64,000 nucleotides of DNA, from the NCBI GenBank assembly GCA_017499595.2, contig CM039004.1, forward strand, positions 1,860,001 through 1,924,000, given 5' to 3'. The notes under the pieces were generated by a model. It was not told the origin of the DNA, made no database searches, and was given only the letters and a program-made list of their open reading frames with translations. Position 1 is the first letter of the stretch; the number at the start of each line of letters is the position of its first letter. The position numbers and the translations under genes were made by a program. Below are positions 1,009 through 40,900 of this stretch, in pieces. This DNA is from Psilocybe cubensis. Taxonomy: Eukaryota.

Positions 1009-2171
1009 AGCGAATAAAAAGACAACTGATCCGCAAGAGACGAAACGGATTGGTGATGATGAAGGTGGGTACCACGATGGCTTGTCCATTTTATACTTGG
1101 CTCAACAACTGGATTCATAATCGTAAGACTTGAAAAGGTCGCGACGCGAGGGCTGAGGTAGTAGTAGTGGAGGGAAGCGGCGTTCTAGTTCGAAAAGACG
1201 CCAGAATATACTTTAGGAAGGCCTAATAGTTGACTAGAAGACAGTGAAAATCAAAGATCAAACCTGGTTAGTGGGGAAGAGCCACACAAATTAAAACCTC
1301 GGAAGCGAAGGTAGGTTCCAAAACAACTAAAATATTGTGGAGACATAAGAAATTAACAAGAATATGCCCCCTTATAATTTCCCGTCCGGAGAAATCGACT
1401 TGGAGAGACGATATAACACAAGATTGTTACGGTTGTGTGATTTACATATTGATACCGCATACACCACTTCCGAAATACGGCGTGTAGCTAGAATTTGCCA
1501 TTACCATGATTCAAGGAAACCAGAGTCGAAAAACAACGATTTCACTTATTTTGGTTTAACGCACAGAATTCGCAAACCATGATGACAGAGGATAAATTCG
1601 GGCGATAAGAGTATCCACTCCCCTGTCGGTTGAAGAAGTTTGACCGAGTAGACGATAATAGCACAGAAATTGGCCTGCATAAATTACCACATTAATACAT
1701 CCATAGTTAATTGCACATTGAAGACATCTCACTATGCTAGGTTTCTCAGTACTGAGTCGGCGCTTCCGAGCCCTTTTGAACCTCTTCTTTGTTGTACGAG
1801 TTCAAGACCTGTCATGACACGCGGTTAGTATGTGTCGCAAATTCTGCAAAATGTCGTAAAACACCAACATGCAGCTAAGCTTTAAAATCGGTGTTGCGTG
1901 AATGGACAGTGTTGGAATTTTGATCTCCAGGGTTTATGACAGCCTCGCACACTGACAGAGGATTGCCGCCTACATGGGAACAAGGTGGGAAAGGCGAGAG
2001 AATGTTGAATTGGTCGTTTGGAGTTGCTCGATAAGATAATGTTGTCGGAAATAGCCGTTGTAAGCAGATGATGATGGTGGTATGGCTACAGTAGGCAACT
2101 ATTGCGAACGAGGAATTTAAAGGTACTCCTGATTTATCGACACATCTGACATTCTGTCCCAAACCATCAGG

Positions 2172-33869: not shown

Positions 33870-36853
33870 ATGGGCGACCTACAAGTATCACCTATATCAC
33901 AACTCCTCCATACGCTTGGAATAACGCGTGAAGATCTGAATAAACGGAGTGATCAAATGCGACAATTTCTCACCGCCGACGATGCCATGTCTTCACGCGT
34001 CCCCGAGCGCGACAATGCCTACCGACCAAGGTCCGGATCGGATTTACACTCCAGCTCACGATCAGTAGGGTCTTCACGATCTTTTGCGCGTTCTCTGTCG
34101 CGTGCAAGCTCATCCTCAGTTCGCGATGGCACTCCGCCAGCAACTCCGGTCAAGTCCGAACCTCGTGAAGGCGAAATACCGCACAGACGCATGGATAGTA
34201 TGGAGATGGTATTAGAAAGGCAGAGAAGGCAGAGAAAGAGTCGTCGGGAAAAAGAGCGCGAATCTAGCAAGGCAGTGCCACATCCCCCTTCCCCATCCCC
34301 CAGCATCGCGTCACATTCAGGTCATAACCTTGACTCCTACATGCAATCACGCGATGATGTCCAACCGCCCAGCTCTTCAAGTAGCAGTCGATCCAATCCG
34401 CCCTCAGTGGTAGGTTTTCTACTCGTTGTCGCGTGTTATTGGTCTCGAGAGCTGATCTGACCATTTTAGACCAATGACCCCCCTCTGCCTATCACTCCTC
34501 AGAAAAGCAAATACTACAGAGATCACACAAACCTTGATTCGGAATCGGCTCGTAAAGTAAGTCTTATATCTTGTTGTTGACTGAAACACCTCTGATTTTC
34601 TCTCGTAGGATACCGCTTTGAAGACTGAGACACCGACTCCCACGCGCGCCAGTGCTCCTCCTCCTCCTCAAAGTCTTCCCCAGCCGCAATACTATGCTTA
34701 CCCAGGATATATGGGATACCCACATTTCATGCCTATGGCATACAGACCCGCCACGGCCACCTCTTCCTTTCCTATCACACCACAGGCGCAACGCACACTA
34801 CCCGCTCGACAAACAGCAACATCACCTCTACCTCCTTCATCTCCTCCCCCGGCGTCATCCCCAATGTCTTCACCCGCCCGTCGTATAAATCTTGTATCCT
34901 CTCCTGGGCCTATGGGCCCTGCTCCCGAAGAGAATGAATACGATAATTTACCATATAAACTCCCTCCAGGCCCTTATTCTCCAAGTAAACCCGACCTCTC
35001 TTACGCTGCCTTGGTGGGGCGTGCCATTTTATCATCTCCTGAACATCGCCTTACTCTCCAAGAAATTTATGATTGGATTACAATAGTGTATCCACATTAT
35101 AAACGTGGAGAGACTACCTGGATGAACAGCATACGCCATGTTTTAAGCACCACTGTATGTTTCCGCAAAGTTCCAAGAGACCGTTCTGTCGGTAGGACAT
35201 TATGGGCTATCTACGATGAAGATATCGAATGTTTCAAGGACGGTGGTTTCAAGAAGCATCTTTGCAAGGATTATGTCAATGGTAATGACGGTAAAGAAAA
35301 ACAATCTGGCAGTTCGAAGGGCAAAGCTAGGGCCAGAAAGCGCGTCGACGATGAAGAAGCCATCGAAGGCCGAAAAACAAAGAAGTTGAAGAAAGAGCAA
35401 TGCGCCATTACGGGCAACATCTCGACCTTCGATTCACATGTTGCCGGGCCATCGTTCATGGGATCCAGCACCCTATCGTCTCGACCTCTATTCCCTCCAA
35501 CACGCCCAACCGCTCACCATCAACCGTACTACCAGAGTTGTGTCCCCCAAACCCAAGGATTCCCCACGGAAGTCATCTTCCCACCTTTACCTGCTGCAGC
35601 TGCTTTCAATCGAGTTGTGAATAATCTCAACACCAGTCACAACAATAATGTTTCATCTTCCACGACACTAACGACCATTAAGGACTCCTCTGCGGTGGAG
35701 GCCTCTCCTCCTCCGAGTAGTTCTTCACCCATTCTTTCAGCATCATCTATTTCATCTTCTTCACTCTCTTCTTCGATCCCTGAACTTACTCCGAATCTCA
35801 GTTCTTCCAGCCCACCATCCTCACTTCCTGCCACCAGCGACATAGATATCGATTGCCCCGAGAGTCGGCCCATGAGCGTAAAACCAGATGTGCTTCATGA
35901 CATTGGAAATACAGCTCTTGCGATTAGCGACATATTTACGGATGAAGGCGAAGCTGACACCTCCACTCCTGCTGAATGTACTGAAGATGACATCTTCAAC
36001 ACAGCACTATTAGGGCCTGTCACAACCTGGGGTCAATCTCCCAAGGTTCCTGGCCTTCTACAACCTGGAATTGAGCTACTGGAGTCTAACACAGATTCTG
36101 ACGAAGATTCTGATATATCTATTCGAGATAGAAAAGGCAAGAAAAAACAAGGCACCCGCAATTACAAGGTACATACTTATTGTCCTCTGTGGTATAAGAT
36201 ATTGAACATTTTTTCCGCAGGGGTCTGTCTTTCCCCCAATGCCTTCATCGCCTTCACTTAATCGCGGGAAGCATGCATCAGCCAACTCTGAAAATGCAGG
36301 TCGCCCGTCAACGCCAGCCTCTTTACCTGCCTTGCCCTCGACGCCTCCTCGAAGTTCAATACTAGATCATCAAATTTCTTCTACTCGCACTCCTCTTTCT
36401 CACAAGGGCCTTCATATGAGCCCATCAGCCAGCCTGGCTCACTACAAATCCAACCTGGACCCGCCGCCTGTATATAATGGAAGTATACCGGCCCTCGATA
36501 ATCCTCAGGCCGATGAAGAGGATCTTATGCGGACCCCTCGGAAACGCGGGACTAACGCCAGCGCTCCCACATCGTTTGGACCCCCAGTTACTCCAAGGAA
36601 ACTCATCTTTTCTGCTAACCTTGAAGATTCACCTTTCCGCACTCCCAGCAATAATCTGAATATGTCCCCATTCCGTACCCCCGGCTCGCGTTCTATCTTC
36701 GACCCTCATGATCCTAGGACACTCCTTGACGAGGAGCTCAGTGGGATGCACTATAACTACGATAGCAGCCCTGCTAGTGGGTTGTTCGGAAGAGGGCGAG
36801 GATCTCTCCTCTATGACAGTCCTGGTTTTGAGAGTCCTGCCAAGTGGTGGTGA
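33870..36853 (+). CDS. Forkhead-box transcription factor (Sep1/Hcm1-like), 4 exons
   Basis: KPDLSYAALVGRAILSSPEHRLTLQEIYDWI…WMNSIRHVLS…CFRKVPR…W. Many S/T-P sites in the C-terminus (TPRK, SPFRTP x2). Confidence 0.85.
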
Positions 36854-37445
36854 CTTTTCTTTTCATGCATTTAACATCTTTGTATCGCATACTTATATCT
36901 CATTGGGCTTCGTTCCCTTGTTTCACGACAATGTCAGCAGTGTTATCTATTCACGAATGTCACCTTGTTTTTGTATTTTTTTTTTCTTTTTGTTTTTTCC
37001 CAACGTATTGTTTCTTTTCCACCTCGGTGATATCTTTCCTTAGATTTTTTGTGTCGTGTTAGGAAAACTGGACACCGATACGACTGTCACCTCCATTTAC
37101 GTTCTTTTGCATTTAGCCCGCCTTGTAGGCCAGGAACTATTTTGTCTCCAATCTTTCTCGTCGTTAGTCTTCTGTACAAGTAAATATCGCTTTCACTGTC
37201 CATCGTGCTTCTATGCAATACAATGTTCTGTTCTGTTGCTTCTTGGAATCTCTGCAAACCATCGATGTCTATCATCAAAAACTCAAGAAAGGTACCGTAA
37301 AAGGATGAGGACTGCAGCGATGATTTTCATTGTTATATATAACGTTACAAGTTAAGTTGTACAAAATAGATCAAGGGAGGAATGAGCACTAGAGAAGAGG
37401 GGGATCAGCATTACGAACGAAGAAAAGTTGGAGATGGAAGAAGAA

Positions 37446-37525
37446 TCAGCTGGCTGTTCTTAGTATTTTGTATGGTTGTATCCCCATCGCCGTAGCTCCG
37501 GAAGTTGGTGTATTGTTCACATCTT
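37446..37525 (-). ncRNA. Box C/D snoRNA with two antisense elements to 18S rRNA helix 34
   Basis: Degenerate C (AAGATGT), guide CACCAACT, D' CGGA, cUACGg hairpin, C' GCGATGG, guide ACTAAGAACAGCCA, D CTGA. The guides are complementary to the recalled 18S sequence UGGCCGUUCUUAGUUGGUG. Confidence 0.78.
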
Positions 37526-37676
37526 GTGTATGATGGTAAAGGGAAGGTAAACTTACCGAGTGTTGAGGAGCCATATGAGGGTGAAGAATAAACAAAGGGT
37601 GGGAGAGGAAATCTATAAAGAGAAAGGAATGTTAGAATGACATATAACAGAAAAGAGTTGAGGAAAAAAGGAAGAG

Positions 37677-37766
37677 TCAGTGGTGCACATTTTGGCTGGT
37701 GCTTGCGGACGTCGTCAAAGTTATCTTGTCAAATAACTACGACTGGGGCGGCAATGGTTTCATCGT
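37677..37766 (-). ncRNA. Box C/D snoRNA, snR67/U31(SNORD31)-like guide for LSU P-loop Gm (yeast Gm2619)
   Basis: C ACGATGA, guide TGCCGCCCCAGT, D' CGTA, stem GTTATTT/AGATAAC, C' TTGACGA, D CTGA. The guide is complementary to LSU CUGGGGCGGCA and the +5 rule lands on the G equivalent to E. coli G2251. Confidence 0.85.
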
Positions 37767-37860
37767 GTAGACAGAAGGGAATGAGACTCACAAGGAAGCT
37801 ATGGACGGAAGGAGTGTAAGAGTAGAAAGAAAGAACAGCGAAAGCGAAAAAAAACATGAT

Positions 37861-37867
37861 CTTTATA
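37861..37867 (-). promoter_or_regulatory. TATA box (TATAAAG) of the snoRNA host gene
   Basis: TATAAAG on the minus strand lies upstream of a pyrimidine-rich start region and ~70 nt before the first donor. Confidence 0.6.
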
Positions 37868-37979
37868 GGCACGGGGGCGTGGGAATGTATGGCAGTCATA
37901 TTGGTCATCAGAAGGGAGTTGCTCCTTGTCACCGACCACCCATCCAAACACCGTTGCTAAAGCTATCAAAAGAGGTATA

Positions 37980-40900
37980 ATGTCTCCTCCGGGCTCACCC
38001 AGGTTGGTTGACTCCTACACAGTGCCAAAGGATATTTTGCAAGAGTTTCATGACCTTGCTGAAGAAGAAGATGTCGACCCTTTCGCTGAAACTGCCTCAA
38101 AGCGCCAGATCGCTGCTCGACAGTCCGACTATCACAACCGACGATTTAAGCGCGTTGCTGTCGACAGTGCCGACGCATTCAAAGAAGGAGGCGAAGGAAA
38201 GGAAGATGAGGGTGGGTATAAGGAGGCTATGCGTTTGACTCGGTTGGAACAAGAGGAGCTGAGAGTGAAGAGAGCAATCGAGGAGAAGCAAAGGAAGGCA
38301 AGAGAGGAGGATCAGATGAAAATGGATCTCGACAAAACCCCGCCTCGTGAAGAGATAGAAGCTGCTGCCAAGGAACTTGCTGCTATGAACAAAGACAAAG
38401 AGGCGGGAAGCAAGCGAAAGAGGCGATGGGACGTAGAAGAGCCGGCGGACGAAAATGTCGACCCCAACAAGAAGGATTCTGGAGAGTGGTCGAAGGAAGC
38501 TCTCGAAGCCTCTGCGCCTAAGAAGCGACGCTCGCGCTGGGATGCTACTCCTGCTGACACCGTCGGGGAGACACCAAAACGGTCTCGTTGGGATCAAACA
38601 CCCGCCCCAGCCCCAGAGGCGCCTATGATGCCCATCATCATGAATGCCCCAGGGATAATGCAAGATGACAAACATAACAGGTATCTCACCGACGAAGAGC
38701 TCGATGCCGTCCTGCCAGCATCTGGTTATGCAATCGTTCCTCCTCCCCCGGGTTATGCCCCAATGGTTGCTCCTCGTAAATTTATGGCTACTCCTATCAC
38801 AGAAGTCGGTGGATTCCAAATCCAAGAAAGCTCCGATGCTGCTGCTGCTGCTGCTGCTGCTGGTCTGGCCCCCGAGTTGCCTACAGAAATTCCAGGAGTT
38901 GGAAACTTGGCTTTCTTCAAACCTGAAGATGCTCAGTATTTTGCGAAGATCCTGAAAGAAGAAGATGAAACCGAGTTAACAGTCGATGAGATGAAGGAGA
39001 GGAAGATCATGAGATTGCTGTTGAAGATCAAGAATGGAACACCCCCAGTTCGTAAAACAGCTCTCCGTCAAATTACAGACAAAGCTCGCGAATTTGGTGC
39101 TGGGCCTCTTTTCGACAAAATTCTTCCCCTCCTCATGGAACGCACACTCGAGGACCAGGAGCGGCATTTACTTGTTAAAGTCATCGATCGTGTCCTTTAC
39201 AAACTGGATGATCTTGTCCGCCCCTATGTGCATAAAATTCTTGTTGTTATTGAACCCCTTCTCATTGACGAAGATTATTATGCTCGTGTTGAAGGTCGTG
39301 AAATCATTTCCAATCTTTCCAAGGCTGCTGGTCTGGCACACATGATTTCAACAATGCGACCCGATATTGATCATGCCGATGAATATGTTCGTAACACGAC
39401 TGCCCGCGCGTTCTCCGTTGTCGCCTCAGCACTTGGTATACCCTCACTTCTTCCTTTCCTGAAAGCTGTTTGTCGCTCCAAGAAATCGTGGCAAGCTAGG
39501 CACACCGGTATTCGTATCGTACAACAAATTGCTATTATGATGGGATGCGCTGTACTCCCTCATCTCCGCAACTTAGTTGACTGTATTGCCCATGGATTGT
39601 CTGACGAACAGCAAAAAGTTAGGACCATGACTGCATTGGGTTTGGCTGCCCTTGCTGAAGCGGCTGCCCCATATGGCATCGAATCCTTCGATAACGTTTT
39701 GAAACCTCTTTGGCTCGGTATTCGTCTTCATCGCGGAAAGGGCCTTGCCGCCTTCCTCAAAGCAATTGGCTTTATTATTCCCCTTATGGATCCAGAATAC
39801 GCTTCCTATTACACCAAAGAAGTTACGGTCATCCTTATCCGTGAATTCCAAACGTCAGACGAAGAAATGAAGAAAATTGTTCTGAAAGTCGTCAAGCAGT
39901 GTGCAGCAACAGAGGGCGTTACACCTCAATACATTAAACAGGATATCCTTCCCGATTTCTTCAAATCCTTCTGGGTTCGACGAATGGCCCTTGACCGGCG
40001 TAACTACAGGCAAGTTGTTGAAACCACTGTAGAGCTAGCCCAAAAGGCCGGTGTTTCCGAAATCGTTGGGCGTATCGTCAACGAACTGAAGGATGAAGCT
40101 GAACCTTACCGTAAGATGGTAATGGAAACAATCACTAAAGTCGTTGCAACCCTGGGTGCTTCTGATATCGACGAGAGGTTGGAAGTGCGATTGGTCGATG
40201 GTATTATCTATTCTTTCCAAGAACAAACGACGGAGGATCAGGTCATGCTCGACGGTTTTGGTACCGTCGTGAATGCCCTCGGCATTCGTGTCAAACCATA
40301 TCTCACACAGATCGTCTCCACCATTTTGTGGCGCCTTAACAACAAGAGCGCTAAGGTTCGACAACAAGCTGCTGATCTGACCACCAGGCTTGCCGTCGTC
40401 ATCAAACAGTGTGGTGAAGACCAATTGCTTAGCAAACTAGGCTTGGTATTGTTTGAACAACTTGGAGAGGAATATCCTGATACATTGGGTAGTATCATTG
40501 CCGCTGAGGGTGCTATTGCAAACGTTGTCGGTATGACACAGATGAACCCTCCAGTCAAAGATCTGCGTGAGTAACTTCGTTAAATCACTTTCCAATAAAC
40601 TAATTCTTATCTTTAATGCAGTACCTCGAATGACTCCAATTTTGCGAAACAGACATGAAAAGGTCCAGGAAGCATCAATCAACTTGATTGGTCGTATTGC
40701 CGATCGAGGCGCCGAGTTTGTGCCTGCAAGGGAGTGGATGCGTATCTGTTTCGAACTGCTCGATCTTCTGAAAGCCCACAAAAAAGGAATTAGACGTGCG
40801 GCCGTCAACTCCTTCGGTTATATCGCTAAGAGCTTGGGTCCTCAAGACGTTCTTTCCGTTCTTTTGACCAATCTGCGAGTCCAAGAGCGTCAGAGTCGCG

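Follow-up and report, generated by a model that had tools for sequence, protein, structure and literature searches.

In yeasts and humans alike, 18S rRNA carries two acetylated cytosines. The equivalent of C1280 (S. cerevisiae numbering, used throughout) is acetylated in S. cerevisiae, in S. pombe, where it is designated ac4C1297, and in humans. In S. cerevisiae, ac4C1280 is made by Kre33 with the box C/D RNA snR4 as guide (PMC5464676). This RNA is described as ∼186 nt long, with box C at nucleotides 15-21, box C′ at 123-129, box D at 184-187 and no clear box D′ (PMC5464676, PMC6171561). Its nucleotides 1-5 pair with 18S 1286-1290 and nucleotides 142-149 with 18S 1264-1271, leaving a bulge of 9-11 nt (PMC5464676, PMC6171561). 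Sni445 is needed for snR4 to reach the 90S particle (PMC12848939). The RNA has been traced to Taphrinomycotina, Saccharomycotina and several Pezizomycotina, and the relevant passage of PMC5824354 does not name Basidiomycota. As of 2022, no human homologue of snR4 was known, and the existence of a human guide was described as unknown in the corresponding passage of PMC9670809.

The C/D RNAs SNORD13 and snR45, which serve ac4C in helix 45, pair imperfectly around a 5′-CCG-3′ cytosine, NAT10 needs this antisense pairing for acetylation, and unpaired and mismatched bases matter for their activity. Making SNORD13 fully complementary was reported to lower acetylation (PMC9670809), and Drosophila SNORD13 acts through a single antisense element (PMC9226516). 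As described in PMC5464676 and PMC9226516, the known acetylation guides leave the target cytosine unpaired. The rRNA neighbourhood of C1280 is also served by the methylation guides snR55 (U1269; listed with CD34 in the N. crassa table) and snR40 (G1271), both listed with uninterrupted complementarity. In addition, C/D snoRNAs can engage in accessory base-pairing, in which a second stretch extends the main guide duplex (introduction of PMC5464676).

Here we describe a candidate box C/D snoRNA within a 64,000-nucleotide stretch of Psilocybe cubensis DNA (the “window”). Like snR4, it is a box C/D RNA that would pair with the helix 33-34 region and leave C1280 unpaired. It differs from snR4 in its size (∼80-90 nt versus ∼186 nt) and in the placement of its guide, which lies directly upstream of box D and pairs on both sides of C1280, with one base left unpaired. 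SNORD13 and snR45, by comparison, act on another helix and carry their antisense at the 5′ end and in an internal loop, not beside box D. The window RNA shares its class, its size, its box-D/D′ guide geometry and its rRNA neighbourhood with snR55 and snR40, but unlike these its guide keeps a non-pair beside the +5 nucleotide.

Materials and Methods

Homologous loci were sought by scanning metagenome contigs with a pattern consisting of the guide and box D, in which two bases were left free (N), the one at the mismatch and the one preceding box D. The other 17 letters of the guide and box D were fixed. Matches that were preceded by a C box at a distance of 55-77 nt and also had a C′ box internally were designated “snoRNA-like”, and the others were treated as background. 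Note that a G at the mismatch makes the first 14 letters of the pattern identical to 18S antisense, and that the scan may have lost such forms. A covariance model of the family was built from the 59 unique sequences of alignment A1, with the window included.

The 18S reference was composed of S. cerevisiae nucleotides 1266-1290, which are given in Table 1 of PMC3940700 and fix the numbering, and of two eukaryotic SSU rRNA fragments confirmed with Rfam. Splicing was assessed on contigs from runs X10 and X11. These runs come from one study and were taken as RNA by guess; their contigs are spliced and RNA-like.

Results

Box C/D architecture

All coordinates of the C/D′/C′/D layout claimed in the original prediction agree with the minus strand of the window from 37525 to 37446 (Table 1), and the guide strings that it quoted from the plus strand were found in place. 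Box C lies near the 5′ end and box D near the 3′ end, D′ and C′ boxes joined by a stem occupy the interior, and an A-rich spacer on the minus strand separates the C′ box from the 14-nt guide. Judged by its boxes, its spliced host intron and its conserved partner (see below), the segment appears to be a genuine intron-encoded box C/D snoRNA. Within the core of box C, the G and A are invariant and the U and G are conserved in at least 90% of the 59 sequences of alignment A1. The stem joining D′ and C′ covaries across the family alignment and is 2-5 bp long: its closing pair is G-C in 43/59 sequences, C-G in 7/59 and non-pairing in 9/59, and the second pair is C-G in 40/59. The cUACGg loop that had first drawn attention is present but peculiar to the window, and only the stem is conserved. 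By inspection of the window and of alignment A1, no obvious complementarity of the flanks was seen that would form a terminal stem. Intronic snoRNAs often lack this stem.

Table 1. Positions of the snoRNA, its host intron and its partner in the window.
Feature	Coordinates	Strand	Remarks
Host intron	37389..37556	-	GUAAGU ... branch-like CUGAU 37408-37404 ... AG
Box C/D snoRNA (candidate)	37446..37525	-	Extent counted from box C through box D; from sequence
Box C, AAGAUGU	37519..37525	-	GAUG core kept; positions 2 and 7 differ from the consensus RUGAUGA
Spacer element, CACCAAC	37504..37510	-	Antisense to 18S 1288-1294; accessory pairing probable
Box D′, CCGG (or CGGA, one base later)	37497..37501	-	Aligned CCGR/CGAG column block, alignment A1
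Hairpin joining D′ and C′, GC-UACG-GC	37489..37496	-	Two-pair stem, UACG loop
Box C′, CGAUGGG	37483..37489	-	From sequence; U and G at least 90% conserved in A1
Box-D guide, ACUAAGAACAGCCA	37451..37464	-	Antisense to 18S 1276-1289, 13/14
A facing 18S C1280	37455	-	Position 6 upstream of box D
Spacer G between guide and box D	37450	-	Single base
Box D, CUGA	37446..37449	-	Perfect; from sequence
Partner C/D snoRNA (candidate), SNORD31/snR67-like	37677..37771	-	Weak Rfam match, 21.9 bits, E 0.079
Partner C box, ACGAUGA	37766-37760	-	
Partner D′ guide island	37754-37736	-	24/24 syntenic loci examined
Partner D box	37680-37677	-	

Host intron and genomic neighbourhood

The location claimed for the RNA, inside an intron, was borne out by contigs of runs X10 and X11, which join 37388 to 37557 and skip 168 nt (the intron 37556-37389). 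The ends of the skipped segment are CT..AC on the plus strand, equivalent to GU..AG on the minus strand, and DNA run X9, from a diverged strain, is continuous across 37389-37556. The snoRNA candidate thus lies inside a spliced intron, with box D 57 nt upstream of the 3′ splice site. The snoRNA itself is without cover in the X10 and X11 contigs, which is uninformative either way. By inspection, the host is a small multi-exon transcript of the minus strand without a long reading frame. It is flanked by two genes of the plus strand, both confirmed with Pfam: a forkhead-domain gene with its end near 36853 and, from 37980 onward, SF3B1. Two short elements were observed between the host gene and SF3B1. 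The 10-nt island ATTCCCACGC (37877-37886, minus strand) recurs in 14 of the 24 syntenic loci examined and may belong to a promoter shared by the divergent host gene and SF3B1; TATAAAG is found at ∼37868-37862 on the minus strand.

The RNA has a plausible biogenesis context, the intron of a host gene that carries a partner C/D snoRNA as well (Table 1). The D′ guide of the partner, which formed no part of the search pattern, is present in all 24 syntenic loci examined. Several non-syntenic loci have this partner too, ∼200 nt upstream of their family member. A candidate for a third snoRNA, at TGAUGA 37272-37277 (minus strand), was rejected because it has no matching D box, gives no Rfam hit and is not conserved in the 24 syntenic loci. 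As to the processing of the partner, a 76-nt intron, 37613-37688 (minus strand), has been spliced out of the RNA-like contigs from X10 and X11, with the 5′ splice site GUGCAC at 37688. This site lies inside the box-D guide of the partner, so that the spliced form cannot yield the partner snoRNA. GUGAGU at 37791-37786 (minus strand) could be the 5′ splice site of an alternative intron that releases it.

Pairing with 18S helix 34

The guide is predicted to pair with 18S 1276-1279 (4 bp) and 1281-1289 (9 bp), which places A37455 opposite C1280. The 18S sequence and numbering used in the original prediction agree with Table 1 of PMC3940700 and with the two SSU fragments. Scored against the S. cerevisiae letters, the match is 13/14, as predicted, and the sole mismatch is the base at 37455. 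Both Rfam-confirmed SSU contigs carry the same target letters, and a primer covering 18S 1266-1286 is reported to match 98.4% of 13,105 non-redundant eukaryotic 18S sequences (PMC3940700). From this antisense to 1276-1289, we regard the D guide as aimed at the 5′ strand of helix 34, in line with what had been proposed.

The D-guide duplex has a calculated energy of -19.3 kcal/mol. When 300 shuffled guides were set against a 912-nt SSU fragment, their energies had a 5% quantile of -17.1 kcal/mol and went down to -21.7 kcal/mol, and the evidence against chance from the duplex energy of this single sequence is modest. It is conservation, in at least 80 metagenome loci and in the conserved islands of a related organism (see below), that argues against a chance match between the guide and 18S.

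The layout of this duplex is that of a methylation guide. Such guides are expected to carry an antisense stretch of 10 nt or more that a single nucleotide separates from box D; here the stretch has 14 nt with 13 pairs, and the +5 rule would make C1279 the methylated nucleotide. The RNA could be an ordinary 2′-O-methylation guide for C1279, in which the A opposite C1280 is tolerated or keeps C1280 free for acetylation. We regard this as the main rival of the acetylation reading (see Discussion), rather unlikely but worth weighing in detail. In its favour are the canonical size and box layout and a guide with 13 pairs directly upstream of a perfect CUGA. Moreover, fungi outside Saccharomycotina have many predicted sites that are absent from yeast (N. 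crassa, Table 1 of PMC2780460). Under such a function S. cerevisiae, which is without the family, would lack methylation at C1279. To our knowledge, C1279 is not a known site of 2′-O-methylation in S. cerevisiae. What does not fit is the interrupted pairing around the target, where uninterrupted pairing is expected: an A (U in 3/59 sequences) stands opposite C1280 at +6. In studies of guide duplexes, mismatches beside the target nucleotide strongly reduce methylation. Nearly all guides in the N. crassa table have zero mismatches, and none of those tabulated there targets 18S near 1275 (PMC2780460). The snoRNA tables of N. crassa and A. fumigatus contain no 18S target at the C1279/C1280 site. 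Likewise, among the top matches listed in the literature searched, which takes in text passages of PMC5824354, of PMC4605285 and of work on S. pombe, we found no report of 2′-O-methylation at the C1279 equivalent.

Family and host genes

The pattern scan returned at least 119 loci, and among the matches listed 80 were snoRNA-like and 39 were background. Together with the window, the 80 listed loci gave 59 unique sequences (alignment A1), with a mean column identity of 57%. With the covariance model, the window scored 80.3 bits (E 6.7e-15) over 37441-37530, and all 80 listed loci and the window scored at least 46.8 bits. The model was also applied to ten of the 39 background loci, which scored between 19.8 and 34.5 bits. 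The 17 letters were fixed by the pattern, and constraint on them is suggested only by their being shared among groups that differ almost everywhere else.

The family occurs in at least three host-gene settings. At least 34 loci keep SF3B1 adjoining the snoRNA, and at least 23 keep the forkhead gene on the other side. In the pairs checked, SF3B1 is divergent from the snoRNA at a distance of ∼0.4-0.7 kb, and the identity of its N-terminus to that of the window, over the aligned part, runs from 97% down to 62%. The microsynteny of forkhead gene, snoRNA host gene and SF3B1 covers 34609-40574 in the window and is seen in at least 34 metagenome loci. A second group, which includes L018, L035, L031, L074, L053 and L019, has the snoRNA within an intron of a different, unrelated gene that codes for protein. 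One exon of this gene, upstream of the snoRNA, has a weak Pfam match to NAD_binding_1 (E 0.0016, below the cut-off), and its last exon gave nothing credible in Pfam. In a third group, the snoRNA occupies the first intron of yet another gene. With several host-gene contexts, and with members down to ∼62% identity at the SF3B1 N-terminus, the RNA is not the lineage-specific guide that it had been taken for.

Evidence independent of the pattern scan was provided by a contig of a related organism (run X12). Between the flanking genes, only two islands of this contig can be aligned, 37437-37469 and 37736-37764. The first, at the guide, has one difference, and the second lies at the guide of the partner snoRNA; SF3B1 has 26 differences in 283 nt.

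An Rfam search had been suggested as a check of the locus, and no family matches it. At the gathering threshold, Rfam reports nothing at the window locus; in E-value mode, only chance-level matches were obtained there (snoU54, 17.1 bits; sR19, 13.7 bits). Four family members gave no Rfam match at the gathering threshold, and eight more, searched with E up to 1, gave one stray match to SNORD71 (22.6 bits). No published description of the family was found in the literature searched. It thus appears to be a widespread fungal snoRNA family that is absent from Rfam, with members known from metagenome contigs.

One contig, L053, carries a second, paralogous snoRNA at 1955-2036 (minus strand), which scores 30.0 bits with the family model. 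The paralogue agrees with the first copy in its boxes and in the end of the exon before it but has an unrelated box-D guide, and it appears to reflect guide switching after duplication of the host gene. The scaffold can therefore change targets, while the helix 34 guide and its A are constant elsewhere.

The conservation of the guide also bears on the identity of its target. The true target might be another RNA with U opposite the A, such as an snRNA, a pre-rRNA spacer or an mRNA, and the 18S match might be secondary or one half of a dual guide; we consider this very improbable. An A-U pair would make the duplex perfect. U2 snRNA shares a 9-nt stretch with the complement of the guide, and the cytosine at its +5 position is methylated in vertebrates. 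Positions 2-4 and 14-15 of the guide pair with 18S and would not pair with U2. These positions are identical in groups that have diverged to saturation elsewhere, which would not be expected for a target such as U2, and the three members with U in place of A would break the A-U pair. Note that guides with multiple targets have been described in fungi (PMC5824354).

Conservation of the mismatch

Conservation of the mismatch across homologous loci, proposed as a check from the outset, was evaluated on the matches listed. Opposite C1280, 56 of the 59 unique sequences have A, three have U and none has C; the 80 listed loci have A in 77 cases and U in three. The members with U (L019, L092 and L053) all belong to the group with the snoRNA in a protein-gene intron. 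Neighbouring bases behave differently. The base 5′ of the guide (position 16) is T in 29, A in 28 and C in 2 of the 59 sequences, and the base before box D (position 1) is G in 35, T in 12 and A in 12. Because these unconstrained neighbours vary freely, the A at the mismatch is likely to be actively maintained, and a non-pairing base opposite C1280 appears to be a conserved feature of the family. In the 39 listed background loci, the mismatch base is A in 12, T in 18, C in nine and G in none. We do not claim that the position is never G, since G is absent even from the background and the scan may have lost forms with G.

These counts give the strongest point against methylation of C1279 as the function of the RNA. 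A guide selected for methylation would be expected to carry G, yet the mismatch beside the target nucleotide is kept family-wide, although G would pair.

The D′ spacer

The original prediction had the RNA targeting helix 34 twice, with a D′ guide for U1289. This second guide was not upheld. The conserved part of the spacer is a 6-nt core, CACCAA, which is complementary to 18S 1289-1294 and present in 23/59 unique sequences; it is missing from the protein-gene-intron group, and its distance to D′ varies by 2-4 nt. The D′ spacer duplex (-13.1 kcal/mol) is no better than shuffles. On these grounds (variable spacing, partial conservation and an energy within the range of shuffles), a methylation guide for U1289 was rejected. 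Five of the 59 sequences have the variant CACCCA, complementary to 18S 1262-1267. A complement of at least 6 nt within 18S 1262-1300 was found in 30/59 spacers, whereas 200 shuffled sets averaged 13.8 and reached 21 at most, a comparison that should not be read as a probability because the sequences are related.

CACCAA is probably an accessory pairing beside the main duplex. As in described cases of accessory pairing, it abuts the D duplex; it differs from them in being present in only 23/59 members and in being altered, in five, to match the other side of C1280. An overlap of the two guides at 1287-1289 had been taken to mean that they act sequentially. The conserved core, however, overlaps the D duplex at U1289 only, so that both elements could pair at once as adjoining helices.

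Taken with this element, the RNA pairs with up to ∼19 consecutive nucleotides of the strand that later forms helix 34, as might a chaperone or timer that makes no modification, masks the 5′ strand of helix 34 in early assembly and relies on the mismatch for easier release. U3, domain A of U14 and snR190 mask rRNA strands elsewhere without modification. Structural, non-methylating contacts between snoRNAs and rRNA are common in CLASH data, according to the sections concerned of PMC6171561 and PMC12645875. A mismatch for release could nevertheless sit anywhere and should drift, whereas here it is fixed opposite C1280 in every sequence group; we therefore consider a chaperone improbable.

Discussion

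The window RNA was compared with snR4 and the other acetylation guides on architecture and sequence. Like them, it has the cytosine of a CCG unpaired between two antisense stretches (4 bp, A opposite C, 9 bp). It has neither a guide in two parts, drawn from the 5′ end and from an internal loop, nor a bulge of several nucleotides, nor a long D′-C′ helix, and identity with snR4 was ruled out on architecture. No sequence likeness to snR4 was detected in Rfam for nine members including the window (E up to 1), where it should be considered that Rfam 15 may lack an snR4 model. Since some Pezizomycotina have snR4, snR4 and the window family may coexist.

We tentatively favour, at somewhat less than even confidence, the reading in which the snoRNA holds helix 34 open with C1280 unpaired for acetylation by Kre33/NAT10. 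The snoRNA would then be built around C1280 acetylation. In the early pre-ribosome, it would keep the 5′ strand of helix 34 in a short helix with C1280 alone unpaired, and the unpaired C1280 would be accessible to the acetyltransferase Kre33/NAT10; in many members, CACCAA would add adjoining pairs with 18S 1289-1294. Such an RNA would be a minimal counterpart, with a one-nucleotide pocket, of the bipartite guides snR4, snR45 and SNORD13. We infer that the non-pair exists because of C1280 acetylation, and we favour this over methylation because G would be the expected base at the mismatch in a guide for methylation. Nop1 may methylate C1279 as well.

The strongest point against the acetylation reading is the textbook methylation geometry. 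The guide abuts box D, C1279 is at +5, and Nop1 would be positioned beside C1280, the base to be modified by Kre33. Furthermore, judged by analogy, the known acetylation guides are longer and carry their antisense elsewhere, and snR4 leaves a bulge of 9-11 nt rather than a single mismatch. Finally, a specific base, A, appears to be kept, and a need to leave C1280 unpaired does not by itself explain A. The two outcomes put forward originally, methylation of C1279 with C1280 left unpaired and presentation of C1280 for acetylation, both remain leading readings. Extended to the family as a whole, the acetylation reading would mean that most fungi other than the budding yeasts use it to guide acetylation in helix 34, as a C/D snoRNP of canonical size that offers C1280 to Kre33/NAT10 as a lone mismatch at the sixth position from box D; this is possible, and we advance it with some doubt.

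The guide for helix 34 is known only in budding yeast (snR4). A conserved RNA that sits on C1280 with a non-pair may be the missing guide for that acetylation, and as it is also easily deleted, selection at C1280 outside Saccharomycotina becomes directly testable. If the RNA is instead a methylation guide, it would represent a rare natural case of a conserved mismatch beside a methylated nucleotide, and the two modifications, being adjacent, would show crosstalk. If the acetylation reading is true, RNA-guided acetylation would work from a continuous duplex with a one-nucleotide pocket, which resembles the A-C mismatch that engineered guides present to base-flipping editing enzymes. The family would then also show concretely what to look for in animals and plants, whose helix 34 guide is still unknown.
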